Positions 35,301 through 63,647 of a DNA stretch of 64,000 bases are shown here, one piece after another. The first letter of the stretch is position 1; each line of letters begins with the position of its first letter. The position numbers were made by a program, and so were the translations under genes. The notes under the pieces are model-generated. The model was not told where the DNA came from, did no database searches, and worked only from the letters and a program-made list of their open reading frames with translations. Where the stretch lies: positions 18,028,795-18,092,794 of the forward strand of contig NC_092670.1 of assembly GCF_964355755.1 (NCBI RefSeq), written 5' to 3'. The DNA is from Antedon mediterranea. Lineage: Eukaryota > Animalia > Echinodermata.

Positions 35301-37379
35301 GAAGTGCTTCAAATTGGTTGTACCTTTTAGGAACCTGTAGAATACATAATGCATTAGTTGCCTTTATATAATACCTAAATAAATTCCTGTCATTTGATTG
35401 GACGATTGTGAGTCACATGGCATGCAATAGTACGCACTATTTAACGATCGTTTAATACTATTTTTTTCTTTTTTCGCGGACAAAAAAATTCTTTTCGCAT
35501 ATGAAAAAAAATACAAAATTACCAATACCAGAGATGTCTCTGCCATTCCTGTGATTCATTTGTCGTCTCGTGGAAATATAATCTTTCATTATTCTCCCTA
35601 ACCTCGCATTATTTGTACCATTCCACAAATATAAAACATTCATTATTTACATATTCAGGGCAGTCGCAGGACTATTTTAAGGAGGTTGCCTAAGAGTCCA
35701 GGGCCATAATAGAAACCAAGTATTTGCGGCACAGGCCCCCATGGTGGGGGCTGTGGCGAAGCAAATTTTGTAAAATGACACCACCTCTAGGTGACCGGAA
35801 ATGGTACTCTTACGTAAAATTCACGATTAATGGCACCTCTAGTTTTCGCGGCAAATGACACTCTATATCTATCGGGCTACAGTACAGCAGTATTTATCCC
35901 GCCTATTTTTCCGCCGGTAAAACACGCGACTAAGGATAACAATTTTTGCGTTCAATGCGAACGTCGGAAAGTCCCACACAAACTTACTTCCGGTAAGGTA
36001 ATATTATTCTAGCAATTATAATCAATTAATACAAATTAATTACTAGGCCATTATCAATTAATAATTTTAAAAAGTTAGACAGAAAATATGAAGCTGCCGC
36101 TATAAATATATTGAGCAAAACGTTGAATTTTATTATTTTGAAATAAATGCTAAATAAGTCAGTAAAACAACAATTTCCAAAATTCATTTTCATTTATCCA
36201 CTATACTGTACAACAGTGTTGCTCAATCCACACTCAAGAAAAGAAAATATGATCGAAATTTGCAGAAATAAATTACACTGTTATTTCAAAGTTTTGAATG
36301 TACGTAATTAGGCCTACTACAGAAATTCGGCCTAATATTACGGACATAGGGAAATGAAGATAGGGGTACTACACTACTAATACTTAAATGATGTTGAATC
36401 CCCGGCAAAATGCAATAATTAAGGACAAATCAACGACCTATATGACCGGGGGTTTTCCACGTACTGTATCTTCTCATGACGCACACAAGCAATCCAAAAA
36501 AATAAGCTGACCGCCGTTAAATTGTGCACCTATAACTTTACGCTGCAGTCAGTCAATTTACATATAGACTTTTCCAACCCTGGACTTCTGTAACGTTAAT
36601 GGTTAATATATATAATGAAATGGGATCTAAATTTTAATTTAGTGGCAGGAAAAAACATTTATTATGAAATTAAGGGTGTTGCCCGGGCAACTGGGGCAAC
36701 ACCCCTGTGTCCGCCCCTGATATTAGTGTACAGTCTGCATATCTGATTTGTTTTTTCAATCTACATCATCATGTAATCATCGTCATCAAACAGAGCAAAA
36801 TTGCATCGGTAGCCGGCATTGGTGTTTGGGAAGGGAGGTTGTGTCATTCGCCGGTATTCTGGCGGATAGCAAAGCATTGTTGTTGTTTGTGAGAGGAGGT
36901 TGTGTCTTCGGTCTTCCAACCAACTGTATATAACAAAACAAGCTCTCGAACGTGAAATAGTGCGCTTATTTTGAAAAACATGACCCATAATTGTTCAATC
37001 AAATGAAAGAACTGTCATGGCCAATATAATTTACTACTAGAGGCGAAACTCGAAAATGCCACTGAATATCAAATGTGTCTTGTGTCTAATTCTCACATTT
37101 AGCAATGCTTGCCTCAGCACTAGCTTGACACCCAAATCAACAACATTTGTAAAAAGTACAGTATTTTAAAAAAGTACATTCGTTCGTTCGTTTTTATTTC
37201 ACAATGCATCAAACTTAATATTTTTACATAATAAGTATTAAATAAAAAAATGCAAAGCCTGGAAAAGACCAAATAAGCTCAATATAGAGCTTTAAGCCTG
37301 GATTCACCAGTACAAAATACACTAATAATTGTATCAATTACAATAGACAATAATTAAATATTAATTAAAGTAGTAGAAA

Positions 37380-37423
<44 letters not shown>

Positions 37424-40400
37424 TTTTATATTTTTTTTATACACAATTACGCTACAGGACAATACAAACACAACAAGAGGACAAACGTAAAGGGTATAGT
37501 ATATGTACTATCATATATACTTGCAGGAGGTGAGACAAAAAAAAAAGTTTGATGAAAAAGTTTTATTAATACGATCTGTATTGTGATAAAAGGAATTGTT
37601 TATATTTGGATTTGAATGTATTTAAGTTATTAGTATTTAGTAAGGATTGACTTAAATTATTCCATACTAGAGGACCATGGTATTTGATAGAATTCCGGAT
37701 TGTGTTATGGGTTAAATTTATTGTGGCGTAATTGTTGGCGTTTCTTGTATTGTAGTTGTGAAATTCATTATTTTTGATGAAGAAATGTTTGAAAATATTT
37801 GGAAGTTGATTGTTTGAATATCTGTGCATGAATGTGGCGATTTGTAATTTGTTAATATCGAAGATGTTTAGGGTATTAAGTTTAAAGAAAAGGGACTTTG
37901 TGTGGGCTATATAGTGAGAATTGGTACAAATGCGAATAGCCCGTTTTTGGAGTTTAAAGAGTTTGTCTAATTTAGAAATATGTGTGGAAGCCCATGGACA
38001 GAGAGTTTTATTTTTAGTATCTGTAATTCCCCAAGCAATGTTACAATAGGATAGATAAGGTAAAATTAATGTGTTATATAAAGAAAAGAGGATATTAGAG
38101 GGTAGAATATATTTAAGTTTTTTTAAGACACCGATGTTTTTTGAAATTTTATTAGCTATATTTGTTATATGGGTTTTCCAGTTTAAGTTATCATCTATAG
38201 TTACACCAAGGAACTGAGAATAAGTAACCCTTTTGATAGGAGTGTTTTCTATATGGATTGTGTTTTGATTGTCATTGCATGTTCTATTTGGAGAAAAGTG
38301 TATATATTCAGTTTTGTTTATATTTAGTGAGAGTCTATTAAGTTTAAGCCAGTGAGATATATGTTTTATTTCCTTATTAAAAATTCTAGTTAAGGTGTTG
38401 TAGTCAGGATGGGAGGAAAAAATGTTTGTGTCGTCAGCAAACAGGACGTATTCAAAAGAGTAGGAAGCGTTGATGATGTCGTTGACATAGATGAGAAAAA
38501 GTAGAGGACCAAGAATTGATCCTTGGGGCACACCGCATGTTATGGGAAGAACTTCTGAGGAGTAGGAGCCGAAAGAGGTGATTTGTTGTCTGTTTTGAAG
38601 ATAGTTAGAAAGTAGAGATAGAGGAGTTCCACGGATTCCATAGTGACTAAGTTTAGTTAAAAGAATTGTGTGGTTAATAGTGTCAAATGCTTTAGACAAG
38701 TCCAAAAATAAGCCAATAGTATGGTGGTTTTTAGATAAGGCGTTAGAGATTTTACTTTGAATGTCCAGGATTGCAAGATCAGTAGAATGTTTTGGTCTGA
38801 AGCCATATTGGTTATCATGAAAAGATTTATGTGAAGAAAGAAAGTTGTAAAGTCTTAAGTCTTATTGTACATATTAAAAAAAATAATGTTTGTATCAATT
38901 CAATTTTTGTTTGGTCAAAGTGAAAAGTGAATAACTAACTATTATGTGACATTAAAATGGCATACCTAAAAAAAAAATTTTTTATTATTTTTTTAGGGGA
39001 AAATATATTTTTAAGTCTTATTGTAAATGCGGTCCGTTATAAACTGGAATACATTGATATTTTTTGTTCATCTGTGATAATGATATGTCAAACTTTTCAG
39101 CAAGAATACCTCAGACCTGAGGTTGAGAAAGTTTGCCGCAAACTACATTTCTGGTATACTTGTTTTCTCTTTTTATCATAAATTAACCATAGAATTTACA
39201 TTTAATTTAAAGTAATATGCATTATTTTTACAAAACATAAAACAATTGTAGGGAATAGGTCTGAAAGCGTGTCAAATCTATTAACAATGAAAACCTCCCG
39301 GAATTGTTAACTTCTGGGAATATGTATTTAAAAACTATGTGATGACTAACCATGAATTGGACATTTTCATCAGAATCTGATTTGAAAATAGAATTACTGG
39401 TGATGACAATGACCTGAAACTCTTCATCTGTCAGTAATCTGCCAACCTTCTCTTTTACGGTCGGAACACTGATGTCTATCCCGGTTACAGTGTTTTTTAT
39501 TTCCCTACAAAAATGATATAAACCAGAAATAATTAGTTAGTGGATGGGAAAATAAATTACAGACAGTAGTGCCGAAAACTCCAATGGGTGAGTGGCCGAG
39601 CGGTTAAGACAGTGGAACCGTAATCACGTAGCCATAACATCGGCAGGGGTTCGAGGCTCACTCACTCCATGGTTCTGGTGGTAGAACGAGTCTTTTCGGA
39701 TAAGGACTATAAACCGTAGGTCCAGTGTACACAACTTGCTCGTGTGCACTTTAAAGAACCTAGTACATCTTTCGAGACGAGTAGGGAGTTACCCCGGTGT
39801 ATTAGTACATCACAGCCACTGATCACCAACTGGGCCCTCTGGGAGACCAGTCTTTGACATGACTGAAGAGGTTACCCAGTATAAATATATATTTCAATCA
39901 ATCAATCAATCAATGGTACGGTATGGTACGGTATGGTCCTAACTACACATTCTATATTGCGATGATGACATCAGTCTTTGGTGCATATATAAAGTAGTAG
40001 TATGGATAGGGTCCTACTAAAACCCCTCCTGAGTGCACGAAAAACATAAATAGGCCTACGCCTCTAGGCCTATATAATATTATTATACAACTGTTCTGAT
40101 CTGTTTGGTCTTCGGGCGTTTATTTCAGTATCTCGGGTTGTTCAGGCATTCTCCCAGCAGGTTTTAGTAGGACCGGTAGTATAAAACAATAGGAACCTAG
40201 GCTAGGCCTTCTGCTGTCTGTTTATCAGGTCTAAGCCAGAATCATGTGACACTTCCAGCATGCAGACTACAGTCTACTAGGTTCTGATTCAGCACACAAC
40301 AAAAACAAAACAATCCTCCTGACTGACCTGGTCGTCTGCCTAGGCCCTATATATGTGTCTGTATAAACTATCTTAATACCTAATTATATTACGTAATATT

Positions 40401-40737: not shown

Positions 40738-42491
40738 TAACCAAGGTATGCGAAAATAAAATTCGTCTTTAATATTCTCATTCAAAACGTTCATATTTTA
40801 CAGTAATTATGTTCAATTCATTTATTCAATTCATGAAATAATTAATGCCGATGAAAAAAAGTTAACTATAGGGTAACCTACTGCTTAGTTAACTTTGATT
40901 CAAGTTAGGCCCAACTATCGCTAGCCTACTACTAGCCTTCTAATAAACTCGGGTAGACTAGGGCCTAACTAGAGAGGACCAGCCATGCTTACTAGACGGC
41001 CTAATATTAGGCTAGGCCAGGTGGGGAATCTAGCCAGGTGTTGTGTCTTACAGTCCCGCTTACAGTCACACATAACGTGCCTACTACTAGGCCTAACCTC
41101 ACAAAAGCTCTACTATTTATAATTTTTTTTTATATTTTTATTAATTACTTCTTATTATTTATGATTATTTTTCAGGAGCTTTGCAAACTTTTAGGAAGTT
41201 CTTCTACAATCTTTCAGCCTTCAACCAACTGGGTAGGTAGCTGAGTGAAACATGCTCTGCATTTACTTGCTACTATTACTAGGCTTTGTCCTACTATTTT
41301 ACCAGGGATATAAAACATCGACAGGTTTTTGGTTGAATTTAACCATTTATTTTATATTTGTATATTTACAAACTATTTTATTTTTTTCATGCAACTTTAT
41401 TAAAACTGCAAAATGACCTATTCAAAGTCTTTTTTTATTTCTACTTACTATTTTCATGCTTTTGGGGGACAATACATCAAAACATTTTATATTTGATTAA
41501 TTTAGGCCTGCGTAGAGATGACACGCTACGATTGACCCCAGCTGTTGTAGAAGCATTGAGAAGACTACCGGAACAGGATCACAATGAAAGGACGTTCCGG
41601 ATTAAAAGAGCTATTGATCTGACAGGGAAGCATAGGGTCTTACCAAAAGAACAGTGGACAAAGTTTGAAGAGGTATATAGTGACTGTATTTTCGAAATTT
41701 CGATCCAACCTGGCCCTAAACCGTCTACTCTCGGCTAAAGTCAAGTAGGCCCTAAGTCAAGTCGGCCCCTGACCTGCACCCTTTTGACAATATTTCATTG
41801 CCTCTGTTTTCAGTTACTATCTGTGCTTGAGTCATTTACAAATTTGTTTTATTCTTTTTGTATTTTCACTCCTTTTATCATAATTTACATATATTTGACT
41901 TAATTTGTTATTTTACTATTTTTACAAGTTTAAAAAATGTTTTTATGAATGTTTTAACCTTCTATTTTATATTAACAGTACCATATGTAAAACAGGTGCT
42001 ACATCTATACATGATATGTTTTTATCCTGTATAAATATGTTTTAAATAAAAATTTAAAATAAAAACTCCTGAAACTCGTCTGTAGACATTTCTTAAAGTT
42101 CAAATGGTTCCAAATTAGTCACAGTTAGAATACTAGAATTTCTGAGACTAGGCATAGTTTTAGCTTTGACTGGATGGACCAACCTAGTTAAGGCATTGTT
42201 GAAATTAATAAATGCCACTCATGACATCATTTTAACAAGACAAATACAGTAGATAAATTAAGAAAATCATTACAATAATAATATAATACTAAACATTGTT
42301 AAAAGATGGAAAAAAATATTGATATGGTTCAGATTTTAGAAGTTTTGCCTTTTTAACAATAAAAATTTTTTTAACGACGATTTATTCTATCTTTTACTAC
42401 TTTTTTTTTATAGGATAAACGATATTTGAAACCGTATATTGATGAGGTTGAAAAAGAATTCTCCGAAAAAAGTGTTTGGAATAAGATGTAA
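40730..42491 (+). CDS. UQCRB: Cytochrome b-c1 complex subunit 7, 105 aa
   Basis: Exons 40730-40745, 41176-41232, 41506-41672 and 42414-42491 give [93 protein letters not shown] at 42714-42719. Confidence 0.95.
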
Positions 42492-44439: not shown

Positions 44440-45500
44440 TTCCTATTATTATTCCTTATTACAGTGTTTCAAAGTACTACTAGGAAAGATATCCACTCCG
44501 GGGTGCCCGGGATGGTTTACGTGTAGTTTAGAATTCATTTTGATACCTCATATGAATGGAAATTGGTATTCCCATAGTCATCTATGAAAGATATCCACTC
44601 TAGTTGGTTTACATGCAGTTTAAACCCTTCCCAGTAGGCTACAATTAATTTAATTTTGATACCTCATATGAATGGAAATTGGTATTCCCATAGTCATCTA
44701 TGAAAGATATCTACTCTAGTTGGTTTACATGCAGTTTAAACCCTTCCCAGTAGGCTACAATTAATTTAATTTTGATACCTCATATGAATGGAAATTGGTA
44801 TTCCCATAGTCATCTATGAAAGATATCCACTCTAGTTGGTTTACATGCAGTTTAAACCCTTCCCAGTAGGCTACAATTAATTTAATTTTGATACCTCATA
44901 TGAATGGAAATTGGTGTTCCTAGTATTCCTTATTACAGTGTTTGAAGAAAGTAGTTTAAAGTTTAAAACCTTTCCAGTTTCATTTTGATTTCCCATGTGA
45001 ATGGAAATTGGTATTCCATTAGTTTTCCTCATTTTAATGAAGTACTACTATGAAAGATGTGGTGTTGGAGAAAGCTTCTAGGTATTCCATAGACTGCCAG
45101 AAGAACTAATGAAAGTGTAAGGCACGAAATAGGCAAGAAACGCACATTAATCGAATCTATTATAAAACAAAAACTACAATACTTTGGACATATTGCCAGA
45201 CGGGATGGAGATAGTATGGAGGAAATGATTATGTTTGGGAAAGTTGAGGGGAAACGGAAAAGAGGAAGACAGAGACTCAGCTGGATTGATGGCATAAGTG
45301 ATGCTGCAAACCGACCAATAATCAGTTGCTACAATGAAGCTCAAGATCGGCAAGAATGGAGACACCTCATTAGAATGGTCACGAGTATACTTAGATATGA
45401 GTAGAACGACGAGAGAGAGACTGTGAAAGATACCCACTCCGGGGTGGTTTACTTGTAGCATTCCCAGTACAATTAATTTCATTTTGATACCTCGATCATA
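44440..45500. repeat. 116-bp tandem repeat (3 near-identical units plus degenerate flanks), interrupted by the RTE fragment
   Basis: tgatacctcatatgaatggaaattggtattccc recurs at 44541, 44657 and 44773, with a further start near 44889. Confidence 0.9.
45059..45420 (+). mobile_element. 3' fragment of an RTE (BovB-like) LINE inserted into a tandem repeat unit
   Basis: Translation MWCWRKLLGIP*TARRTNESV..LQYFGHIARR..GKVEGKRKRGRQRLSWIDGI, (GA)n tail, and an 11-bp TSD with one mismatch (ctatgaaagat 45048-45058, ctgtgaaagat 45421-45431). Confidence 0.8.
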
Positions 45501-48920: not shown

Positions 48921-49100
48921 AGCCGGTTTTCCATTAGACGAATTTATTCACGCGAATCGAAATTGTTTACTGATGCGCATGTGTATATTAGTAGTAGTAT
49001 TCATATACAGTAGGTCTACTTTTGTGACGTAGAAAAACGCGCAACCAATTATTACTCAGTATGTTCGATTCGCGCGAATATTTGCTAATAAAAAAGGGCT
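48921..49100. mobile_element. MITE family C (TAA-flanked; fragment also at ~51380-51450)
   Basis: agccggttttccattagacgaatttattcacgcgaatcga ... tcgattcgcgcgaatatttgctaat..gggct, TAA on both sides. Confidence 0.6.
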
Positions 49101-49931
49101 TAAGCGTCGTATGCTCAAGGTTTGGCGAAGGAATCTATTGAGATATATCATCTTTGTCATATTGCGATTACCCATTTAATAAGCACGCGAATTGTTATAT
49201 TTTATTGTTAACACATAGGTCTACAATGCCAACAATCAACAATTTATAATTGTCAAAATGCTCAATATGTTTTAAAACTATTATTAGGCCCATTATTATC
49301 ATCTAACCTTGGAATATAGCATCACACGGCCATCTTTGCTGTGATCGCTTTAATATAAGTACAGATCATATATTAATGTTGAGACAAAACAGGCATATAG
49401 GCATATGTACAATTGCAAATGTCCAAATATAATATTATATTAATTACTTTATCTAAACCTGGATGACGTAACGACCACCTCTCTGCAGTGATCACTAGAA
49501 ATAAATGTGCTTTTATACCATAGAGAAATTACAAACTATAGTATTCAAATAAAATGGAAGTTAAAATGCAGCGTATAATTCTAAATACAACATTATAATG
49601 TAACATTAATGTATATTTATAACGCGTACAAAGCGGGAAGAAGTAAAGGGTTTCAGTCTGGAATTTTTTTAGATAAAGACGTTATAGGCTTACATAGCGG
49701 AACTAAATTTTATTTCATAGCAATAATGCTATATATCTGTAAGTAAAATTTATCCGTCGAAGTGATAAGTAGGCCTACGAATTTAAGCAATGAACGACAT
49801 CGTATTAAAGAGTTAAGGTATTGCGGATGGCTTATCGATCAAAAGTGAAGTATGTTCCTTTATTCTGCTACATGTTGAGTCTATACAGCCATCGCATAAA
49901 CAGTCACAATCAATTTCAATTTATTCTGGGC

Positions 49932-52900
49932 TTAGAACTCCATTTCTGAACGATTGTTGTGTCTAGCCCATAAACGTTTTTCTTGCGGGGCTGTGCCATC
50001 TCCGTTAGCATCGATACGTTTGAAGCTTCTATGCCGATACACAGCTGAAAAACAAAACAAAAGTCCATCATTGCATTTTTAGATTTTAGAGAATATTTAC
50101 AATATACACGACACAAAGAAATAAAATAAACGCTCTGTCTACACGATTATACAGAAAAGTATGGTTTAGAAAATCATTTTGAAAGCCAAATAATAATAAA
50201 GTATTATTTTGAATCAATTCTAATATTTATTTAGCAAAAAAAAAATTCAATTTCGATATTGTTCGCAAAATAAAAGCGACTCGAAAACTAAACGATCGCG
50301 AAAATTAAACAAACGCGTAATTTTTGGAAACATTTTGAAACATGATGGTAAGAGGATTTATAACTAAAGCCTTGATATTACAATGTTTTAATTAGTCAAG
50401 AAGTCTGCAGTCGCGTTGGAATTTGTTTATAAATATTTTCTTGAATTTCGGATTTCAATTATAAGAATCATTCGAACTTAAATAACCCTTTTGTTATAGC
50501 AAATCACAATCAACTTCTGGCACCGTACTTGAAAGGTGACTGAATTCAACACAGGTAAAAGAGTAAGATAGGTATCCCTATTTATTGTCGTCCCCAAGCT
50601 TAACTGCAATCTTGTTTCTACATTCACACCGAGGCCACCAGACCGGAATCCGCCCTCACTGTGAACGTAGCTTTAAGCTTGGTTCCCACTAGGATGCAAC
50701 GCAAGGACGTAAGCCGCAACACCATTCACAATTATGGGCCCTTGGGGAATAAACTTAAAACTTTAGATATACAGTAGTATTGAAATACTTTGACAATACT
50801 GTTAATTCGTATTAACCATTTTTGGTCGCAATTTGGATCGCAAATTTTTTACTTACATATACAAATAAACTTTATTACTGTGAGTGTGGGTACTGTTAGA
50901 TATATAAACACATAATATACAAAAAAACTCTATTACTGACAGTTGCTTCTCAACGTTTGTATTAATTAATATTTACCAAAAAAAATAGTTAGTGTAATGT
51001 GGCGAACATGTCATCACAGACTCACCTTTGTTTAACTTTGCGCTTCAAGACAAAGTTTCTGATGAAACGCGTAATGTGCGCGTAATTACAGATTTATTAC
51101 CGTATAGTTTGAAGGCAAAATCAACTTCATATAAAAATGATTACATAACTGATGATTGATGGCATCATTGCTTTTACATGACATTTAGAAAATAATTCTT
51201 TTCAAATAGTTGTATTTGCGAAGTAGGCATACAAAATGTCCTTTTATGAAGGGGAGTCCCATAGTAAAACATACCGTACATGTTCACAAGAAATAACCCT
51301 TAATATAGGTGTCTACTAAATAGGGGGTTTCCATGAATAGGAGAGTCACAAAGGAGGGGTACTTTGAAAATAAACATATTGATACGCATGTGCAGTACCA
51401 TAGTCAGTCTTTTGAATCGCGCGAATAAATTTGCCTAATGGAAAAACATACTTAAATCCATCATAAATGAATTAGTTTTATGTTTAATTGTTTAAGTTTA
51501 TTATTATCTTTAATTTTCCTTTTCCATGTCAGTGACCAATCGTTCTCTATATCAAAATGTGTTTTCCACTTTGTTTTACTCTTGGTTGGTTCTAACCGTT
51601 TGTCCTTAATAAAATATAAATATATTTGTTTACTACTTATATTCAACCATCGAACATGTAATGTTTTTAAATCTTTGATTTTTACACCTTGAAGAAATTT
51701 AATAGAATTTGTCATTATGCAGTTTGATTTATATCTAAAGTGTATTTAAGTAATTCATTGAGTTAATGAACCTGTCGTCAATTACAATATCCTTATTATT
51801 TCGCACACCTGACCTTTTTATCCAATTTCTTGTTGATGTAATATAGCATCATAACATAATGGACATTTAATAATACAACAAGTAAGTTGAGCTAAATTAC
51901 ATAGTATCGAATTATTATCTATGGCATGCTTTTAAAAATATTATTTTTCATATCTTTAGAAGCGTTTATCTACAAAAATGAAGATAGTTTCAATGTGTTG
52001 AAAAATAAACAGTGAAATGTCTATCATTAGTTTTACTTATCGCTATAAATTATATAATATGTCTCTCAAAAACATATTTAAAAGTAATTTATTTTATAAA
52101 TAGATAATGTAGAATTCAATTATATAGAAAATGTGTATCTGTAACACTAATATTATATTTCATTTTAATGTATTGAGAATACGTTTGACAATATAAATAC
52201 CGATAGAAAATAATATCACTGTGCATTATCAATAATACTGACAATAGAGAGCCTCTTTATCTTTCACATTAGTTTAATCATACCTCATTGTTTTACATTT
52301 TCCTTTGTTCATTATTCTGTTTGTTATAAATGATATGATTAATAAATGTTTACTGTAACTAGATTTGAACTCGTCACCACGAAGAGTTAGTTGAAACAAT
52401 TAAGGTATATTTATAGCATTGGTTAAAACGAATAAACGTAACGTTTATGTTAAAATACATGGGCAAAGATTTTTTACCTCCATGATTCAACTACCTAGGT
52501 AGAGTTTTTTTGTTGAGAATTCTTTAATAGTCGAAGCTGGGTGATACTATATCCCCAAGTCTGTATAGTTATTGTCTTTTTTATGTTTACCAATCGGCGT
52601 TTCGATTAAGTCCAGTTTACGAGCTCAAGTAGTATACGTATGAAACGCAATATGTGCCAAAATATTTATCTTTTTACTAATATTAAGTCAAAACTACTAA
52701 CCTTTGCTCCTTCGATTAATGGTATCCAATGCAGTGCGTTTTCTTTCAACGGGTGGTTGGTTGGTCGTGCTGCCATACAACACCGATTCGTTATCATCAT
52801 CGTAATCCATCACAGAAAGCCCATTTTGCGGTGGTGGTCCAGCTAATGATAAAAATAACAATTAATTAATGAAATAAATAGGCAAGTCAATGCCTTGAGA

Positions 52901-55900
52901 TGTGTAATCTTTAGTGTCATGTTCTTGGTATGAGGGACTGAAAAAATTAAATCCTGATTTAGGATTTGGCGTTATCCGGAAGCGATGAGAAGCTATCACA
53001 ACACTGATAGTTTTTTCATTCATAAACATTTATTTCTATTAATGGTGCATAGCAAATAACAATAACAAATTAAATAAAAGAAGAAATATACCATTAATAA
53101 GAGGTTGTTACCTCTTTACGTTCTCTCATAAGTTTAAGCATGCGCAGATGATTGGAACGTTCTCTCATAAGATTATAAGCATGCGCAGACTGACTGGAAC
53201 TCTAACTAGTACTTTGAGAGTTTCGACGCCTAATAAACAGGTCGTAATTCAAAATGATATAGTCCTACCATTTGCCTTATTTTCGTTAGAAGTTTGCCAG
53301 CTGTATTTGACTGGAGCTCCCTTGATCCTGTTAACTTCTGCTTGCTGGAGTCTAGCTCGACGGCCTTCGGGGTTTTCACGGTTCCCATTGGCTACTCGTG
53401 AACTACCTTTAGCCCACATTCGACTTGCCTAACAATCATAAGAAGAATTGTATTAAATGTTGTTTTATTTACTTTCTTAGATAAAGAATAACGTCGCAAT
53501 TATCAATACGTTTTCAATAATAGGCATAGTCGACGTATTAACTAATGACGCCAACAACCAATCACAGAAAAAGAGCACAAAAAAAAGAAAATAAACAAAT
53601 AGTAGGCTTAATTATCGAAAAAAGCACCAAAATATAATTGATTAAAAATTATATTATTATTACCGATCGTCCCATTTGATTTCTTTCAATGTCAGATGCT
53701 TTCCTGAAAATTTGTAAAATTTCGGTTGCGCCTTCAAGAACTGAAACAAAACATTGTATTAATGTATTAAAATGAATGAAATAAAATATGAATGATCGTT
53801 ATATAAATGCTAACGATTGTTGAATGTTTAGTAAAGTGTATAATCAAACAAATACAAGGCTGCTAAAGTACTGTATATGACGTCACTTGATACCTTTTAT
53901 ATTGTCCATTCTCATTGCTGGTAACACTACAAGAACAATCCAACATGGCGTTTTAGTATCTTCAACTGCGTCTTTCACAAAACTCAGCGCAACAGACGAT
54001 AAGTGGCGGATCCGTGCTCTGTCAACATTCTCTTTACGTGCTTCCAGTGCCAGCTGAACTTTGAACTCTTGAATGTCGAATATCTTATAAAATAAAAAAA
54101 ATCATTGGTCAACTTGTTTGCGTTGCGTCTACGTCATTTGGTTGCCTTCTACAGGGACCAAATCTTTAAGCTTGATTCCCACTTCGCAACGCAACAAGGT
54201 ACGCGAAACGCAGGTGAATTGACCAATCACAAGTGACCATTTGAAATTGTTTGGACAAATTAGTTGCGATGCACTTTACGTCTAACGTTAGCGTTCAAGT
54301 GGGAACCAAGCTTAAGGAATATTCTACATGCTGTGAAACTTCAACGACTAAGCTTATTCTATTTCCGTATTATTATACGATACACGAAGTCTTTTAAAAC
54401 GGTTAAGGCTACATTTAAGTACTCTTCAGTTGAGAGGAATCAACGGTTGACTTAAGACAGAATATTAAAAGTTCAATGTACGTTATTTCTGTTATGATTA
54501 TGTTTTCGCTATTCATAATATTATCAACCATAATAAATTACTGCAATCTAAACATAATTACCTTTAATGGTTGATTCACTTCTAAATGACCCATATTCTC
54601 GACCAGTTCCGGTGAAAGACAATGATCCTGAGGTTCAAAACATCCTTTGACAAACACTTCATTTTTTCCTAGTCTTGTTGCCCAAACATTACCTTCCTGG
54701 TCTACTTCTAGTTGAACTCCTCGCCCTATGTGTGCCCGCACTTTCTCTGTCTGTTGGTCCCGTAACGGGTTTCGCAGAATACCAAAACCTAGCCTGAAAA
54801 AATTAAGGACAATTTTCAAATTCAAATTCAACAAACATTTATTTCATCAAATGCCATACAATTAATACAAAGCATAAAATGAAGACCAACCTAAAGTAAA
54901 CTTGTCTCAGTTGGGCATTTAACAGTGATAATATATAATAAATAATATAATAAAAATGCTTAAACATATTTAAAATAATTCTATTGACTGCACCACCTTT
55001 TCCGATTATCTAGATCAACAACATGATTTATGGGTTATTAATCAAAGTGTGTTGCACCTGAAAAAGCTAGCTACAGACATATACATATATAATAGACTTA
55101 TACATAGATCCCTACTTTTTATAATCGTTAGGACGAATACAAGTATCACTTGTTATGTAATTGCTCCTATTCATGGTAGTTTTGTGTCAAACAACCAAAA
55201 CTGTGTTTCTATATGCATAGTGCATAGTGTATGTGATTACCTTCTTACTAACTCAAACAACTTTAAACTAATATCTTATTTAAGAATTGATGACCGTGTT
55301 GAATCGGATCATATGCCAATTGCCTTTAGTATTCAATTCAAAGACAAAGAACACACCAAAATGATTGTCAATGAAGATGACACGTTTACCCAGAGTACGT
55401 TCAAATGGTCCAACAGTTACATTAATGCATCCAAAGTCAGATGGGAACATGATATCATTGAAACTATTGATAATGATTTTATGAATGCTATCTCTCAAAA
55501 TAAAATTGATGAGGCAGTTTCACATTTATGTAAAATTTTTGAATACGTATGTAAAGGAATTAAGTATACACAAACAAGTAAATCTTCAACTTCTACAAAA
55601 CGAAACGAATGGTTTGATAAAGATTGTAAGAACCTTAAAATGCAGGTTAAACAATCATTAAAGAGATTTAGAATTATGCGCACTCAACCTTTTTTAAATA
55701 ATTATATTCAGATAAAAAAGCAATATAAATCGCTATTAAAATGCAAAAAAAATAACTTTCATAAAAGAATACGCAAACAAATTATCGATTCACTCAATAC
55801 AAAGGATAGCAAAACGTTTTGGATGAAGTTGAAGACAAAACAGAAATTATCTTGCGAACTTTCTATTAATCAATGTTATATTCATTTTAAGAACCTATTT

Positions 55901-58900
55901 AAAAACGATGAGTCTATTGGTAGCGCTGAGTTGCCAAAAATCACAGAATGCCAACAGAATGAAGACGATGATTATTTAGACCACGACATAACGTTGGATG
56001 AAATAAAAAAAGCATTTAATTCTCAAAATAGTGGAAAAGCTCCCGGCATTGATGGAATGAATTTTGAATTTTTGCTAAACGCCCCCAACATTATTTTTGA
56101 TATTTTAAAAATTCTTTTTAACGCCATATTTTTAGTTGAAAAATTTCCCAAACAATGGGCAACAAGCTTAATCGTTCCAATTTTTAAAAATGGAGATAAA
56201 AACAAACCTGAAAATTATAGAGGTATTTCTTTAATTCCAATCCTAGGAAAAATATTTTTAAATATTCTTAATTCTAGGTTAACACAATTTACAAATAGTA
56301 AAAAGTTAATTCATGAGGAACAAGCAGGCTTTCGTAAGGGATATAGAACGACAGATAATATATTCATTTTAGATACCCTCATCTCTAAATACTTAGATAA
56401 AAAGCGGGGTAGGATTTTTGTTTGTTTTGTTGATCTTAAACGTGCCTTTGACTCTATAAATCATACACTTTTACTACATAAGTTGAAATGTATCGGTGTT
56501 TCAGGCAGAATGTTACACATAATAAATTCCTTATACCAAAACTTATCTGCTCATGTTAAAATTGGCAACAAACTTAGTCCATCTTTTAATTGTTCGATTG
56601 GAGTACAACAAGGTTCTCCGTTGTCGTCTTTACTCTTTAATATTTACATTAATGATTTGAGTGGTATACTTAATCAGGTAAACGATTTCATTCAAATTGG
56701 AGATTGTCATATGAATCATCTTCTTTATGCAGATGACTTAGTGCTTGTTAGTGATACGGTGAAAGGTCTCCAAAAATTAATAAATAAACTTGAACTTTAT
56801 TGTGATACTTGGAAACTTACTGTAAACACTACAAAATCCAAAATTATGGTTTTTAAAAATGGCCGCAATTTAAGGAACATTGAAAAATGGAAGTATAAAA
56901 ATATTCAATTAAAAATTGTTAATTCGTATAATTATCTTGGTGTTATTTTTAGTTCAAATGGTGCATGGAACAACTCAATGCAACATAATCAACAAAAAGC
57001 AAATCAAAGTTTATTCTGCTTAAAATCATTCATTTATCGTAACTTATCTTTTCTTCCAATTAATACATGGAACCATATCTTTGATGTGAAAATACTTCCT
57101 ATTTTAACGTATGGAAGCGAAATCTGGGGAATGTCAGATAGCACAAACATTATAGAAAAAACACATACTAAATTTTGTAGATATTTATTGCAAGTTGGAA
57201 AAAATGCACCAAATGCCGCTGTTACTTCTGAGTTAGGTAGATTACCACTTTCTGTGGATTGTTTAGTTACAGTTATAAGATTTTGGTTACACATTATTAC
57301 TTTAGATCATGACAGATTCATTTTTAAGTGTTATGAATTTCAACTTAGAAAAGTTAACCGTAATGAGAATTGTTGGGCACAACAGGTCAAACACTTACTC
57401 TTTTCTACTGGTTTTGGTTATATATGGTTACAACAATATGTTAATAGTAAAGGTTTATTTTTGAGAGAATTTAAGTTGCGCTTATGTGATATTGAAAAAC
57501 AAAAATGCATTCAAAAATTTAGTTTACATAATAAGTTAAGGCTCTTTTCTCTTTATAAAAAAGAAATATGTTTAAGTTATCACTTGACCAACATCATTAA
57601 TTTTAAACAAAGAAGAATATTAACTAAGTTACGTTTAGGGATATTAGAGCTAGAAATTGAAAAGGGCAGATGGGAGGGTGTAGAAAGATATAAGAGAACG
57701 TGTAAATTATGTAAAAAGAACATTGTTGAGGATGAATATCATTTTATTTTGCAATGCACATTTTACAATGATTTAAGAAAAAGTTTTATTCCAAGATTTA
57801 TTCGTGTTTTTCCTTCTATTAATAAGCTTTGTTTATTACTTTCCAACACAAATTTTACTTATAATTTAGGAAAATACGTCTACTTTGCTTTTGAAAGAAG
57901 AAACCATTATCTTAAGTTATAGTTAATTTTTATTTGTTTGTATTAGGGCCAAAGGCCAATATATTTTGAACCAATAAATTCCCTGAAAAGGGAAAGAAGT
58001 AATATGCTATAAGTCTATATGCTATAAGTGGTAATTACCGGATGACACAACAATTAAACAAACATATAAAATTAAAAAGAAAGTGAAAAGACCACCAAGA
58101 AGACCAAAAGGCTTGATAAACCAAATAAAAAGATAACCAAATAAAAAAAAAAGATTTAAAAGGAAAACAAATGTAGACTTTAGCACAATAACAAACTATC
58201 CTGCCCAAAACAGAAAATATTGAAACGAATCGTGGAAAGCGTAATGTCTGAATGACGTAAAATGTTCTAAGAGAGATACAAGTAGTATCAAAGAACTTAT
58301 AACACAAGAATCTCCTGTTCGTCCGAAGCGCGTAACAATTTCGAAAGGCATTGTGGGATAGAATAGAGCTATGGGTGGCGCCATTGTGAGCCATGGAGTA
58401 GGGCGCCCGCATCAAATTAGAAAGTCAAAATCATAGAGGGGATCTGCTAATGCTCTAGAGGGGGTAGAGTAATTGACTTCCTAGTTTGGAGGGGGCACTG
58501 CTCCATGCTGTGAAATGGCGTCGCCCAGTTTGACCTTTTAACCCTGTACTTCCGATACTGTGTTTTGAATGCAAATTGAAGAACAGGAGATTCTTTTGTT
58601 ATAAGTTCTTTGGTAGTATGTTTACCTGCCAGGGTATTGAAATCGGTATCCATCCACAATCAATGTGGGTGATTTTATGCAAAACTCAGTCAGTCTACAA
58701 TGTTTCTCAAGGAAGTAAACTTTGGCCCAACAATCATCATCTATGTCGTTAATTTGTGAATACACTTCATCTGTTAGTTCCTGAAAAAAAAAACCAGTCA
58801 ATCAATCAATATATCAATCAATAAATCCATTTATCAATATTATATTGATCAGTCAATATCAATTAATTAATCAATATATCAAACATCTATCAAAATAATC

Positions 58901-61900
58901 AACAATATAATATCAATAAATCAATATATCAATTATAAAAATACATGTATCAATCAATATTATCAATGTTTTCCTACCTCTTGCATTTTACTTTTCTTTG
59001 TTTTTATGTCTGTTTTGTTAACATTCGGACTTTCGAATTCGCCGTAACTCAATCTTTTTGGTTTTCTTGCTGGTACTGGGGCTACTTTCCTGTTCTCAAT
59101 ATTTACCCGATGGCGATCAGTTCGTACCTTTAGCTCTCCATACAACATCTGAAATCAGCAAAATGAAAAGAAGCTTATTTATTTTATCTATTTTAACTTT
59201 TATTAAGTCATTTGACGCGATGACGTGGGCATTAATAGGTCTATTTATTAAAAGTATTAAACCTTTTTCAAATTTGTCAGGACAATCATAAACTACCGGA
59301 TCATTCGAATTGTCGCTTTCTGATTAGTCAAATTGCTTGTGTTGTCCGTACGTCATTGCGTTGCATCTCCAAGAGTGGATGAGTGGAAGATTCAATATTG
59401 CCTTAAAAATAAATGTATATGTTAACATTCCTACCTCTCGTTTTCGGCTGTCCTGTTTCTTTTGGTCAAGTTTATCTAGCCTCACCAATTCAGAATGAAA
59501 TCGATCACCAAATTGGTGCATCAGTTCAAACATCTGCCGCTGTTCTTTGACTTCTTTTCGCCGTTTCGCCAGAATGGTGTGATAACGCCGCCTTGCCATT
59601 CGTCCGCGAACCATTCGTTGACACGTGATCACACGGTCTATCAAGTTATCAAGGATTGAGTCGAGTTGTTCCGTGTGCCAATATTTTAGGAATACCTGTG
59701 AAAGAAGTTATTCATTTAAATGATCCACAACATAACAATTGGTTGTTTTTTTTGTTATTATTCAATGTGCAGTATGCAGTAGCAGAGTCAATATCATCAT
59801 CGCCTGCATCCTCTTAACTTATCCGTCATAATTGTTACCGCCATTATCGTCGTATGTTAAGTTGCACTTGGTAATAAAGTCGCAATTTGTAATAACAGTT
59901 TTCATTGTAATAAACTTGTCGCACTTTCTTTCACACTTAATAATAATAGGCTTAATACCATGTGTTATATATTTCAGTATTTTTACAATTTCTCGATCGC
60001 AATATAACAACATAAATATCATAAATGACACGATGACCATAAATTGATCCAATTCTTACCTTAGTTTTACCAATCTCATAGCCTTCCAATCCAGCCACTT
60101 CAAGGAGTTTCCTACACGCAGATGACGTTATTTTGATGTCCTTTGATGCATTATATGCGATAAACTTATACCTTAATTCGAGAAAAAAAAACCATATTAT
60201 TTTGCAGACATATACAAACGATCATTAGGTTTAACATTAATTCGAATCGGACGCCATCGCAGTCTCCGATCCTTAAGGAGTTCCCAAGCCCCATACGAAT
60301 ACTACACTAGTTTGTGGTGTGATGTGATGTGCCCAAATATAGAAGTGACATGACGTCATAATGTCCATGTATGGGAACATCACATACAGTTTTGTAGATA
60401 GTGTAGACAGACAGACAATGTTTTTGAATAATCTAATACCTGCGCAAAAATTCTGCAAATATCAGTCGCGTAGGGTATCCTTCGCGACGTATACGAGTAG
60501 TTTCTAACACTCCAGTATATCTTAGTTGTCTGACAACTAGTTGAGGCTCAAATGTGTTTGGCTGACTGTATACGTTTGGCTTGACACAACGAACAAACTG
60601 AGGTTCTGCTCCCAACATCTTCTGCATCAGATCAGTCAAAGATTCCTAAAATAAGAAACACAGTCAAATAAAACAATTTGTTGGTCGATGTTCTGAAAAA
60701 TTTAATTTGTGTTACTATTTCACAGTGTATTGTTTACTAGACTGGATCCATTACTCCCCAATCACACTTTTTTAGAGGAGAATTCTTAAACTATAAGTAT
60801 TTTCTTCAGTGAAACTTACACTGACTTGTAAGTTTCACTATAAGGTTTTGTTATTAATCATGGGAAAAGCTCGATCAAGCTCGATATAGTATTATACACT
60901 AAATTGTTTTGTCGTATGTTAGGTTACACGAAATAGTTTAGAACATGGAATATGTTTGTAGTAGAGCCCGTTTATGGAACGACAATATTCCAAAATAGGG
61001 CAAAAACGCACTATAAAATGGCTGCTGTAAGAAATGCGCTAGCTCGATAATACACTCAAACTGAAGACATATTCTTTATATCCACACATATTTCTAAAGC
61101 TCTGTCTACACTATCAAACTTTATGTGACAACAAAATGTGATGTGCTCTTAATGGACATGATGATGCCTTATTACTACCATATTTGGGCATGTCACTACC
61201 ATATTTGGGCACATCACACTTTTTTGTTAAACTAGTTTGGTAGTATGGACAGAGCTTTATAACTGTATACTGTAATTAATTAGTCATAAAGTAAAATTTT
61301 CTTACTCTAAAATGCAGGCCACTTGATGCGAGTTGCTTTCGTTTTTTGTCGTCCTTCGCTTTCCCCAATCCTTCTTTCATTCTGAAATAAAACAATTATA
61401 CGGCTGTTTCATTCATTTGATTCCCAATTCAAGCAACATGTTACATGGTTTCAAACTTAGTTTCTTTACCGTGGATTAGCAACAGTAATAATCCTATTCC
61501 AATCTTAATAGGCCTATATCAGGCTTTAGTCAACAACTCACCAATATGCTTAAACACGTGTAAACAATCAAGTTAAGTTTTCAGATATTATTCGTATTGT
61601 TACAAAGAAACGTAAACAAAACCGTAGTAGTAGCTTCTGTCAAAGTCATCCACAGCTGATGGCTTATTTAAGTAGAAATAGAGGAAGTGATCAATGACGG
61701 TAGGTCTAACACTGCGGAAGTGGCGACACATTTCTGGCACGCATTTACACACGGAAGGAAACGCGTGCAGTAGTGTTATATATAGGAATTGTTTATATCG
61801 TTAAAGTTATTTAGCGTTGTATTATACAAATGAATGATCAAGGTTGACATATCACAATCCTTCGTGCTCCATATCTTTATCAATAGGCAAGCTGTGTATC

Positions 61901-63647
61901 TATAATAGAAAGCTTAATGCAGACATTTTGAGAGCAGGGTTGAAATTCAGAGGCTGATAAAAACTGAAGGCCAATATTATTATTATTTTTCACCTTTCAA
62001 AACAGTAATTTCAGTATGTAGAAATTGGTACTGAGAGAGCTAGGCCTATACTTACTGTTTCTTGAGTTTCTTGCCCTGGCTACGTGATATGCTCATTGTC
62101 CCGTCGTGGATAATTTTAGTTGGTTTTTTACAGAGCAAGATATCTCGTTGGTTACGAAGAGCTTGTCTTACATCTCTGATAAATATAAATAACATTAAAA
62201 AACATAAAACATGGTACTGTGTTGGATTTGTAAATCAATCTTTTAATAATTTGATTTAAATGTACTTAGGCTTGCTTATATACTTAGGCTTGACTTAGAT
62301 GTAGGATAAAAGCGCTTACTTACTTTTCATTGCCTTGTTCTGAAAACAAAAACTTCACCAAGATGTTGTCACTCTCGCTCATCACATCTTGAAGATTTTG
62401 GCTAAAAGTGTCTCGATTCTTCTCAAGAAATCCGTTTGCGTCATACATAATCTATAACGTAGCAAAAAAAGTCTACTTTCATGATTTATCCAAAGAAATT
62501 TAAACAAACATAAAATAATAAATATTGTAAATTTCTAATTAACATTATTATATAATAAATTATAATAATAATATTGGTAGGCTTTATAGCTTCTAATACA
62601 ATGTTTCTAAGCGCTTTACACACACAAAAATCCATAAAATATTCTTAGATAACCAAAAAAGAGGAACCATTTACATAATAACATATAAAACATATGTCCT
62701 AATCTGGGAATTACTAAAAATTACTAATTATTGTACTTTACTTACATTCCTACTTTTTTTAAAGTTATGTTTCTTTTAATTATTTATAAAAACGTACTTT
62801 AATTCGTAAAACCCAATTTCCAATAAGTACATTCATCCAATCGAAAACGTTCGTTCGTATTCTTAATCAGAGAATATACTGATACAGGTTTTGGTAGAAA
62901 TAGAACCGGTAACAAAATTCGAAAACAAAAAAAAACATAGCTGGACTGATCTTGTTTAAAAAGATGATGTTTTAAAGCAAGATTCCAACTAAATGCTTTT
63001 GAAGGTACCCTACCATTATATCATATGCTTACTTACATCTGCTGCGAAGTGTTTGATTCCAAAGACCGACAGTCCGCTATTTTTCTTCGCAGGTTTAATC
63101 ACGTTTGAATGTTTCCCGTGATTTGATATTATTTTGCTGACCAGTGATTTATCTGATGCTTTTGGAAAACGACTTTCTTCATCCAATATTGCGAATATAC
63201 CAAGTGGTTTCTAAATATAAAGGTCGAAGGTCAAATACGGTCAAACAGTATTACAATATATCACAACCAAATATGGCAACATTATTACTATATATATAGC
63301 AATAGCGACAATGCCAGATAACTATAATTACTTGTCTGGACACAACTTTTCAATCGTTTATCAATGAAAACAAGATCAATATACCATAGTGGAAACATGG
63401 TTATAACATACAACTAATTACCCCAAGAAATAGGTCCAAAGTGGCTTGATTATCGGTAAATTTGATGCTAGATTTGGGAATTCCTTCTTGTGAATATTCT
63501 TGTAGTTCCCACGCAAATATACGTTGATTGAAGTAGAATTGAAGTTGTTCGTTGGTTACGTTTATACATAGTTGTTCGTAGCTGTTTTTCTCAAAGTTCT
63601 CAAATCCGTAAATGTCTAGGATTCCTACCTCGCAACCAGGTTGACCC
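49932..63647 (-). CDS. Unconventional myosin (class III-like motor) with one IQ motif and a C-terminal Smad-type MH2 domain; 5' part lies beyond the right edge
   Basis: Sixteen GT-AG exons with matching phases, in transcript order: 63647-63422, 63210-63037, 62451-62324, 62175-62056, 61381-61306, 60645-60440, 60171-60060, 59695-59435, 59148-58978, 58780-58626, 54793-54562, 54083-53894, 53740-53664, 53428-53269, 52842-52702, 50044-49932 (TAA); about 846 aa in the window. Motor motifs: [11 protein letters not shown] (switch 2), [75 protein letters not shown] (class III-like). IQ-like motif: [16 protein letters not shown]. Confidence 0.9.
51455..51830 (-). mobile_element. Degraded L1/Tx1-like ORF2 fragment in the last myosin intron
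   Basis: [41 protein letters not shown] resembles the post-RT region of Tx1-type ORF2. Confidence 0.5.
53894..58780 (-). CDS. MH2 (Smad) domain exons of the myosin gene (58780-58626, 54793-54562, 54083-53894)
   Basis: The spliced translation [80 protein letters not shown] aligns by eye with the Smad MH2 pattern WCSIAYYELN.RVGE..LTVDGF..RFCLGLLSNVNR..TRRHIGRGV.L..IFNNQEF..MSFVKGWG..TPCWIEL. Confidence 0.9.
54169..54312. mobile_element. MITE family B copy in an MH2-region intron of the myosin
   Basis: agcttgattcccactt ... aagtgggaaccaagct with TTA/TAA flanks. Confidence 0.75.
54815..55225 (-). mobile_element. Probable LINE 3' UTR and tail in the opposite orientation, abutting the RTE-X element
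   Basis: On the minus strand it ends in GAAATAAAATG..(TTTGAA)n, preceded by a short stem-loop-like segment; it has no coding capacity. Confidence 0.45.
55225..57980 (+). mobile_element. 5'-truncated non-LTR retrotransposon (RTE-X-like) with the end of the APE domain, RT and a C-terminal zinc finger; inside a myosin intron, antisense to the gene
   Basis: ORF 55049-57922 contains DYLL..SDHMPI (APE end), [52 protein letters not shown] and [16 protein letters not shown]. The frame is uninterrupted and followed by a short 3' UTR with AATAAA. Confidence 0.9.
58289..58612. mobile_element. P-element-like MITE with a 7-bp TSD
   Basis: ~32-bp TIRs CAAAGAACTTATAACA(C/A)AAGAATCTCCTGTTC; TSD GTAGTAT at 58282-58288 and 58613-58619. 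Confidence 0.8.
60300..60410. mobile_element. MITE family A degraded copy in a myosin intron
   Basis: gtgatgtgcccaaatat..gatagtgtagacag. Confidence 0.65.
61098..61256. mobile_element. MITE family A copy in a myosin intron
   Basis: Full TIRs with TAA/TTA flanks. Confidence 0.85.

Follow-up and report, generated by a model that had tools for sequence, protein, structure and literature searches.

Gene structure and transcript evidence

The window analysed here is a 64,000-nucleotide stretch of the feather star Antedon mediterranea (contig NC_092670.1, positions 18,028,795 to 18,092,794), and its minus strand holds a gene in which a myosin motor, an IQ motif and an MH2 domain lie on one spliced chain. 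The gene is a crinoid class-80 myosin. By sequence and predicted fold, its MH2 domain is nearer to that of the Expansion/Rebuf proteins than to those of the Smads.

Rebuilt from the window, the gene has 16 minus-strand exons running from 63647 to 49932. All introns are GT-AG (15/15) with matching phases, and the spliced product comprises 846 codons and a stop, with zero internal stops. Searching with an MH2 exon returned XP_071961883.1, named 'myosin-IIIb-like isoform X2' in RefSeq (Antedon mediterranea, 1218 amino acids): our product equals its residues 373-1218 with 846/846 identity, which bears out the single 16-exon frame of the initial annotation. The first 372 codons, at the 5' end, sit upstream of the window, and RefSeq isoform X1 differs from isoform X2 solely by 12 N-terminal residues. 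An additional exon at 52938-52894 was dropped: it would close the frame and is absent from the RefSeq protein.

The first exon in the window (63422-63647; all exons on the minus strand) encodes switch-2 (DIYGFE) and the relay helix of the motor, and matches Myosin_head on its own (E-value 6e-25). Exons 2-5 (63210-63037, 62451-62324, 62175-62056 and 61381-61306, with a 499-letter spacing in the transcript contig) supply the 50-kDa domain and a long basic loop-2, the region of residues 541-612 of XP_071961883.1 containing 19 K/R against 8 D/E. The SH1 helix region and the converter follow in exons 6-7 (60645-60440 and 60171-60060); exon 8 (59695-59435) closes the motor and adds a single IQ motif (59632-59579) and an extended neck helix. 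Past a basic, proline-containing linker in exon 9 (59148-58978), exon 10 (58780-58626) brings the putative N-alpha helix (about 58780-58745) and the first MH2 strands, exon 11 (54793-54562) the MH2 core (MH2 E-value 8e-13), and exon 12 (54083-53894) the MH2 helices with a short L3 loop, SFVK and TPCW being separated by 7 residues (53987-53940). Exons 13-15 (53740-53664, 53428-53269 and 52842-52702) encode a post-MH2 helix, the motif RMWAK, a GRR..YSW motif and an acidic spacer; exon 16 (50044-49932) encodes a second basic tryptophan (W) motif, RLWAR, and the stop. The 3' untranslated region (UTR; 49054-49931, minus strand) is covered by a spliced contig.

The scan suggested in the initial annotation, for Myosin_head, IQ and MH2 on one chain, finds the first and the last above the Pfam cut-off in XP_071961883.1 (Myosin_head 9-723, 700 bits; MH2 880-1043, 98 bits, cut-off 25). 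The IQ falls below it (741-758, 14.3 bits, cut-off 20.3; E-value 0.0012 on the single exon), and is thus a weak single IQ. Scanned one by one, four exons match Myosin_head and two match MH2.

Transcript contigs were drawn from one run of one study and indicate presence only. That run X1 is RNA is a guess by the tool: its depth is zero in most intron bins, while the DNA-like run X2 covers those introns. A 2487-nucleotide contig of run X1 bridges 60060>59695, 59435>59148 and 58978>58780; from 58625 on, its loose end matches the beginning of the exon at 54793, so 58626>54793 is joined too. It goes on through 54792-54562, 54083-53894 and 50044-49054, including about 880 nucleotides of the 3' UTR. 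One contig therefore holds all three junctions that the initial annotation had singled out for checking (59435>59148, 58978>58780 and 58626>54793). A second contig of run X1 spans exons 1-6 at exact spacing.

The presence of motor, IQ and MH2 on one spliced chain is thus confirmed. Because the contig skips introns that the DNA-like run X2 covers, the fusion of motor and MH2 can be accepted independently of the gene prediction; the proposal of such a fusion was correct, the two parts being found on a common transcript rather than on separate ones. A prediction artefact, by which two tandem genes, one for a myosin and one for an MH2 protein, would have been run together, could draw on two observations: junction 60440>60171, inside the motor, is bridged by no contig of run X1 (two contigs end either side of it), and one crinoid record has the middle of the MH2 as a separate fragment (P0012, P0024). 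Yet the single contig that links converter, IQ and MH2 exons already refutes this explanation, and an MH2 stands on the same chain in 29 of the best 120 motor homologues, across four phyla groups; we regard it as extremely improbable.

Exons 13-15 are not resolved singly in the contig, which falls three letters short of the expected 378 there (375), with the frame kept. This 3-letter shortfall (52702-53740, minus strand) may reflect an allele or an alternative splice site.

Several other features lie in the window. An unbroken reverse-transcriptase open reading frame (ORF) of a long interspersed nuclear element (LINE)-type element (54974-57919, plus strand; 982 codons; RVT_1, 127 bits) sits antisense in intron 10, between two MH2 exons, and is not part of the gene. 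Run X1 has a 2890-nucleotide contig that matches it except for 27 differences, and in run X2 the element's depth is well above single-copy, so it belongs to a young multicopy family. A second reverse-transcriptase ORF (RVT_1) occupies 37569-38861 (minus strand), and a short ORF at 45093-45401 (plus strand), with no Pfam match, resembles the end of another retroelement. Elsewhere we note rhodopsin-family G-protein-coupled receptor exons (7tm_1; 8539-10389, minus strand), a PX-domain exon (35122-35412, minus strand) and a nearby acidic exon (29000-29506, minus strand) that probably form one gene, and an exon of the cytochrome bc1 14-kDa subunit (UCR_14kD; 41343-41735, plus strand). Finally, 19928-20732 is a long trinucleotide-rich low-complexity repeat with His/Ile/Ser ORFs in three frames, and we see no evidence for a gene here.

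Motor class and distribution

Class-80 myosins, with a C-terminal MH2, are described from echinoderms and hemichordates, and lophotrochozoan orphans of the same build from the vicinity of class-36 (Kollmar & Muehlhausen 2017, PMC5583752). Myosin III-like proteins of the same two-domain build are known from the sponge Oscarella carmela and the choanoflagellate Salpingoeca rosetta, and MH2 has been proposed to begin on a myosin (Sebe-Pedros et al. 2014, PMC3942036). As the initial annotation suspected for the architecture, neither is new: the gene has a RefSeq entry and the class has been described in print. It also knew of no functional characterisation, which agrees with our finding no functional study of a class-80 protein in the literature searched, mostly without subscription papers.

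We listed the best 120 of 7976 motor matches; the 29 that carry an MH2 come from all five echinoderm classes, hemichordates, a brachiopod, molluscs, annelids and the sponge Corticium. Conversely, a profile built from six echinoderm MH2 sequences gave 670 matches among 1.84 billion representatives, and a motor is present in 16 of the best 150. Twenty matches or homologues were looked up for organism and domain names. The named MH2 matches with a motor belong to Rhopilema, Hydractinia, Sycon, Patella and Batillaria, and those without one to Trichuris, Caenorhabditis, Strongyloides, Blomia and Agrilus. Among the matches listed, many of them unnamed and from a search that was not exhaustive, no named ecdysozoan protein combines motor and MH2.

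In a motor tree of 42 chosen rows (LG+G4, 700 columns, myosin II root), all 22 MH2-myosins and a partial Capitella motor form one clade (support 89/84). Its order tracks the animal tree: sponges (Corticium and Sycon, at the base), cnidarians, then bilaterians (100/99), the last divided into Ambulacraria (95/92), which include the feather-star protein, and Lophotrochozoa (98/96). Kinase, ankyrin and SH2 myosins fall outside, and the seven kinase myosins form a clade of their own (7/7, 100/100). The motor phylogeny proposed in the initial annotation therefore sets the gene apart from class III kinase myosins; its other half concerned the chitin-synthase myosins of class-36, which are absent from the best 120 matches and from the tree.

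With a motor, a C-terminal MH2, an ambulacrarian host and a place in the echinoderm and hemichordate motor clade, the gene is the crinoid member of class-80, that clade being equated with the class by architecture and taxa and not by a curated Myo80 reference. It does not differ in kind from the class as described in PMC5583752. Our tree does join to it the lophotrochozoan 'orphans' (100/99) and, more weakly, the cnidarian and sponge MH2-myosins (89/84), whereas in that work class-36 split them. The motor is related to those of class III, with 43-46% identity among the matches listed, but it lies in a separate clade and lacks the N-terminal kinase: the Pfam scan shows no protein kinase, and the motor begins at residue 9 of XP_071961883.1 or 21 of P0013, in a region outside the window known from the RefSeq models. 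The name 'myosin-IIIb-like' is a nearest-match label.

The motor motifs are intact: P-loop GESGAGKT, switch-1 NDNSSRFGK, switch-2 DIYGFE and the relay. In an alignment with myosin II, Glu occupies the TEDS position and nothing is inserted ahead of the IQ, which would fit an unregulated, plus-end motor. In the model of a sea-cucumber orthologue (mean predicted local distance difference test, pLDDT, 75), one unbroken helix of 62 residues is predicted from the converter to beyond the IQ; it is followed by a disordered linker, the N-alpha-MH2, another helix and a tail of low confidence.

Compared with nine non-crinoid echinoderm orthologues, identity is 54-69% in the MH2, 58-68% in the motor and 16-26% in the distal tail: at the sequence level, the MH2 is shown to be as conserved as the motor among echinoderm orthologues. 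Some MH2-myosins elsewhere, for example those of Patella (P0138) and Rhopilema (P0151), have altered P-loop and switch motifs and long branches (RGYSGSGKT and DPPGFE in Patella), which suggests that motor function was lost in some lineages while the MH2 was kept.

The MH2 domain and the origin of Expansion

The N-alpha-MH2 of Expansion is defined by an N-terminal helix that lies over the Smad trimer face and by an L3 loop shortened from 17 to 11 residues (PMC4388265; in its accessible text the word 'myosin' has 0 occurrences). The initial annotation called the feather-star domain a Smad MH2, a name that the data do not support: its L3 is short, an N-alpha helix is predicted, and its best match is Expansion. 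Against the PDB, the echinoderm MH2 profile scores 106.5 bits with Expansion (4r9p) from position 3, and 69.1 bits with the best Smad (Smad4) from position 15. SFVK and TPCW lie 7 residues apart in 32/33 myosin-type rows and 17/21 Expansion-type rows (the rest having 8-9), compared with 13 in 4/4 Smad4-like rows, which makes the feather-star L3 six residues shorter than the Smad loop.

The predicted structure points the same way. The AlphaFold model of residues 863-1068 (pLDDT 93.9) has a predicted helix at 2-9 that superposes on 4r9p from residue 39. Foldseek gives a template modelling (TM) score of 0.88 and a root-mean-square deviation (rmsd) of 1.9 to 4r9p, and TM scores of 0.66-0.75 to R-/co-Smad chains. 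With VIA, the match to 4r9p reaches Z 28.8 and rmsd 1.8 over 194 aligned residues starting at model residue 1, the first helix included; matches to R-/co-Smads have Z 20.2-21.8 and begin at residue 11-17. Two things may have raised the fold match: many Expansion homologues stood in the model's alignment, and 4r9p was available before the model was trained. The profile comparison, which uses sequence alone, is free of this bias. ESM Atlas returned generic MH2 clusters only. Altogether, the feather-star MH2 is of Expansion/Rebuf type, nearer Expansion than the Smads in sequence and in predicted fold.

The likeness has bounds on both sides. Expansion and Rebuf (4R9P; PMC4388265, PMC4305360, PMC9894549) share with the feather-star domain the N-alpha helix and the short 11-residue L3; Expansion has no motor, an N-terminal MH2 and a CM2 motif in its tail, whereas the feather-star protein has a motor ahead of its MH2, basic W motifs and a deuterostome host. 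Sponge and cnidarian MH2 domains do not begin to match the echinoderm profile until position 10-17 and seem to be without the bilaterian N-alpha helix sequence. The Smads (Smad1-4, Smad7) have the same core beta-sandwich and helical bundle, at 20-29% identity in structural alignment. Unlike them, the feather-star protein has no MH1 in the Pfam scan of XP_071961883.1, an extra N-alpha helix and a short L3; it shows no C-terminal SSXS and stops at RSEMEF, about 160 residues past the MH2.

These differences bear on the idea that the protein is a TGF-beta-linked motor, carrying receptors or Smads through a Smad-like MH2. The fold is common to Smads, residues DGY and RLG matching Smad4's VDGY and DRFCLG are kept, and the Smad MH2 has been proposed to come from a myosin (PMC3942036). 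However, the L3 is six residues short, the predicted N-alpha helix would lie over the trimer face, MH1 and SSXS are lacking, and Expansion, which shares these features, does not transduce TGF-beta signals (PMC4388265). We hold such a motor to be very unlikely; receptors or Smad partners, the first cargo guess of the initial annotation, are unlikely because the MH2 is of Expansion/Rebuf type.

Expansion/Rebuf has been called protostome- or ecdysozoan-specific (PMC4388265, PMC4305360). For MH2 trees (LG+C20 with posterior mean site frequencies, PMSF; 200 columns), 58 rows were chosen from about 200 MH2-bearing proteins. All but one of the 22 motor-less rows form a single clade of nematodes and arthropods (21/22, 100/99), which is Expansion, as it contains an Agrilus (beetle) protein scoring 350 bits with 4r9p. 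The remaining motor-less match, P0155, nests with Hydractinia and was set aside as a probable fragment. With a Smad4 root, Expansion joins the lophotrochozoan myosin-MH2 domains (93/97). Once the Smads are removed, all bilaterian myosin-MH2 domains together become its sister group (67/85), only 22% of bootstrap trees recover the protostome grouping, and the one firm split (99/96) sets sponges and cnidarians against bilaterians plus Expansion. The MH2 phylogeny suggested in the initial annotation thus places Expansion with the bilaterian myosin-MH2; the Smads are covered in it by four Smad4-like rows.

An approximately unbiased (AU) test rejected the grouping of Expansion with sponge MH2 expected of a pre-sponge paralogue (p-AU 0.0085). 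Of the columns exclusive to a pair of groups, 9 are common to Expansion and lophotrochozoan myosin-MH2, 4 to the lophotrochozoan and ambulacrarian domains, and none to Expansion and the ambulacrarian ones. An origin of Expansion from a bilaterian myosin tail is favoured by these sequence comparisons, not proved, and a direct orthologue or an early duplicate would both fit.

Several points weigh against such an origin. The exact position of Expansion is unstable between trees, and the AU test rejected neither a single clade of all myosin-fused MH2 (p 0.251) nor one of the bilaterian myosin-MH2 (p 0.343), while the rejected sponge grouping was named after the trees were seen. The outgroup consists of four Smad4-like rows, with R-Smad, I-Smad and choanoflagellate MH2 left out. 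The tails differ as well: the basic W motif ([RK]x{0,2}W[AS][KR]) occurs in 26/32 myosin tails, compared with 0/21 Expansion tails. Conversely, a CM2-like motif, whose pattern was taken from Expansion-type matches and matched to CM2 through the primers printed in PMC9894549, is found in 10/21 Expansion tails and in 0/60 motor-plus-MH2 proteins (isoforms included); a tail motif common to Expansion and the MH2-myosins was looked for and none was found. In the literature searched we found no paper linking Expansion to myosin; Additional file 1 of PMC5583752 may say more on class-80. On balance, we lean towards Expansion/Rebuf being the ecdysozoan remnant of an ancient animal MH2-myosin, whose motor would have been lost toward arthropods and nematodes and an apical-targeting motif gained instead.

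Proposed function

In Expansion, the N-alpha-MH2 is needed for chitin translocation: it is the effector, acts without any motor, and CM2 brings the protein to the apical membrane (PMC9894549). By analogy, we suggest, with slightly better than even confidence, that the class-80 protein works with a single head as an actin motor at the actin-rich cortex, where it would keep in place or transport a partner bound to its MH2, serving membrane trafficking or surface-matrix secretion and standing outside TGF-beta signalling. As in Expansion (PMC4388265, PMC9894549), the N-alpha helix would lie across the trimer face of Smads, and the phosphoserine site would be lost through the short L3; with the one hidden and the other lacking, the MH2 would be a monomeric adaptor. 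The motor would do the localising job that CM2 does in Expansion, in the same division of labour, through a predicted 62-residue lever helix and a flexible linker ahead of the MH2. What speaks against a cargo carrier is the one IQ below the Pfam cut-off and the absence of a shown dimer, which make long-range transport doubtful.

The tail holds two basic W motifs, RMWAK (53422-53408, minus strand) and RLWAR (49976-49962, minus strand), with GRR..YSW between them and no Pfam match. The basic W motif occurs twice in 20 of the 32 myosin tails (in 500 shuffles a mean of 1.3 tails had it, maximum 5) and is kept from sponges to echinoderms. It may resemble calmodulin-binding helices. The protein might instead be an actin-anchored tether or tension sensor, one whose motor is regulated by its own MH2 and two W motifs, either through their folding back on it or through their binding of calmodulin or membrane. 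The single weak IQ, the motif's retention in 26/32 tails, sponge members included, and the predicted flexible linker before the MH2 would suit such a device; the MH2 surface, as conserved as the motor, and the Expansion MH2 that works without a motor (PMC9894549) argue rather for an outside partner. We consider the tether unlikely, while keeping it in view.

That partner may be a matrix-synthesis enzyme, the last cargo guess of the initial annotation. It could be chitin synthase itself, with the motor bringing an Expansion-type MH2 to the enzyme at the apical membrane. The need for the N-alpha-MH2 in chitin translocation (PMC9894549) speaks for this, as does the grouping of lophotrochozoan MH2-myosins beside or with the chitin-synthase myosins of class-36 (PMC5583752). 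On the other hand, our literature search gave nothing on chitin synthase or chitin in crinoids or echinoderms, the motor tree has no class-36 sequence, and Expansion and Kkv lie in patterns that are largely complementary, and an unknown factor has been invoked (PMC9894549). A partner specific to chitin synthase therefore seems to us a rather improbable choice, and a cortical motor with an MH2-bound partner the preferred one.

The gene is an ordinary member of a described class, functionally unstudied in the literature searched, and its value lies in the kinship of its tail to Expansion. The finding extends the MH2-myosin class to include cnidarians and sponges, and it has a bearing on the proposal that the Smad MH2 came from a myosin. 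To explain how Expansion and Rebuf let chitin synthase export chitin, an unknown factor has been posited (PMC9894549). If Expansion did come from a myosin tail, its partner should be conserved wherever in animals the motor is retained.

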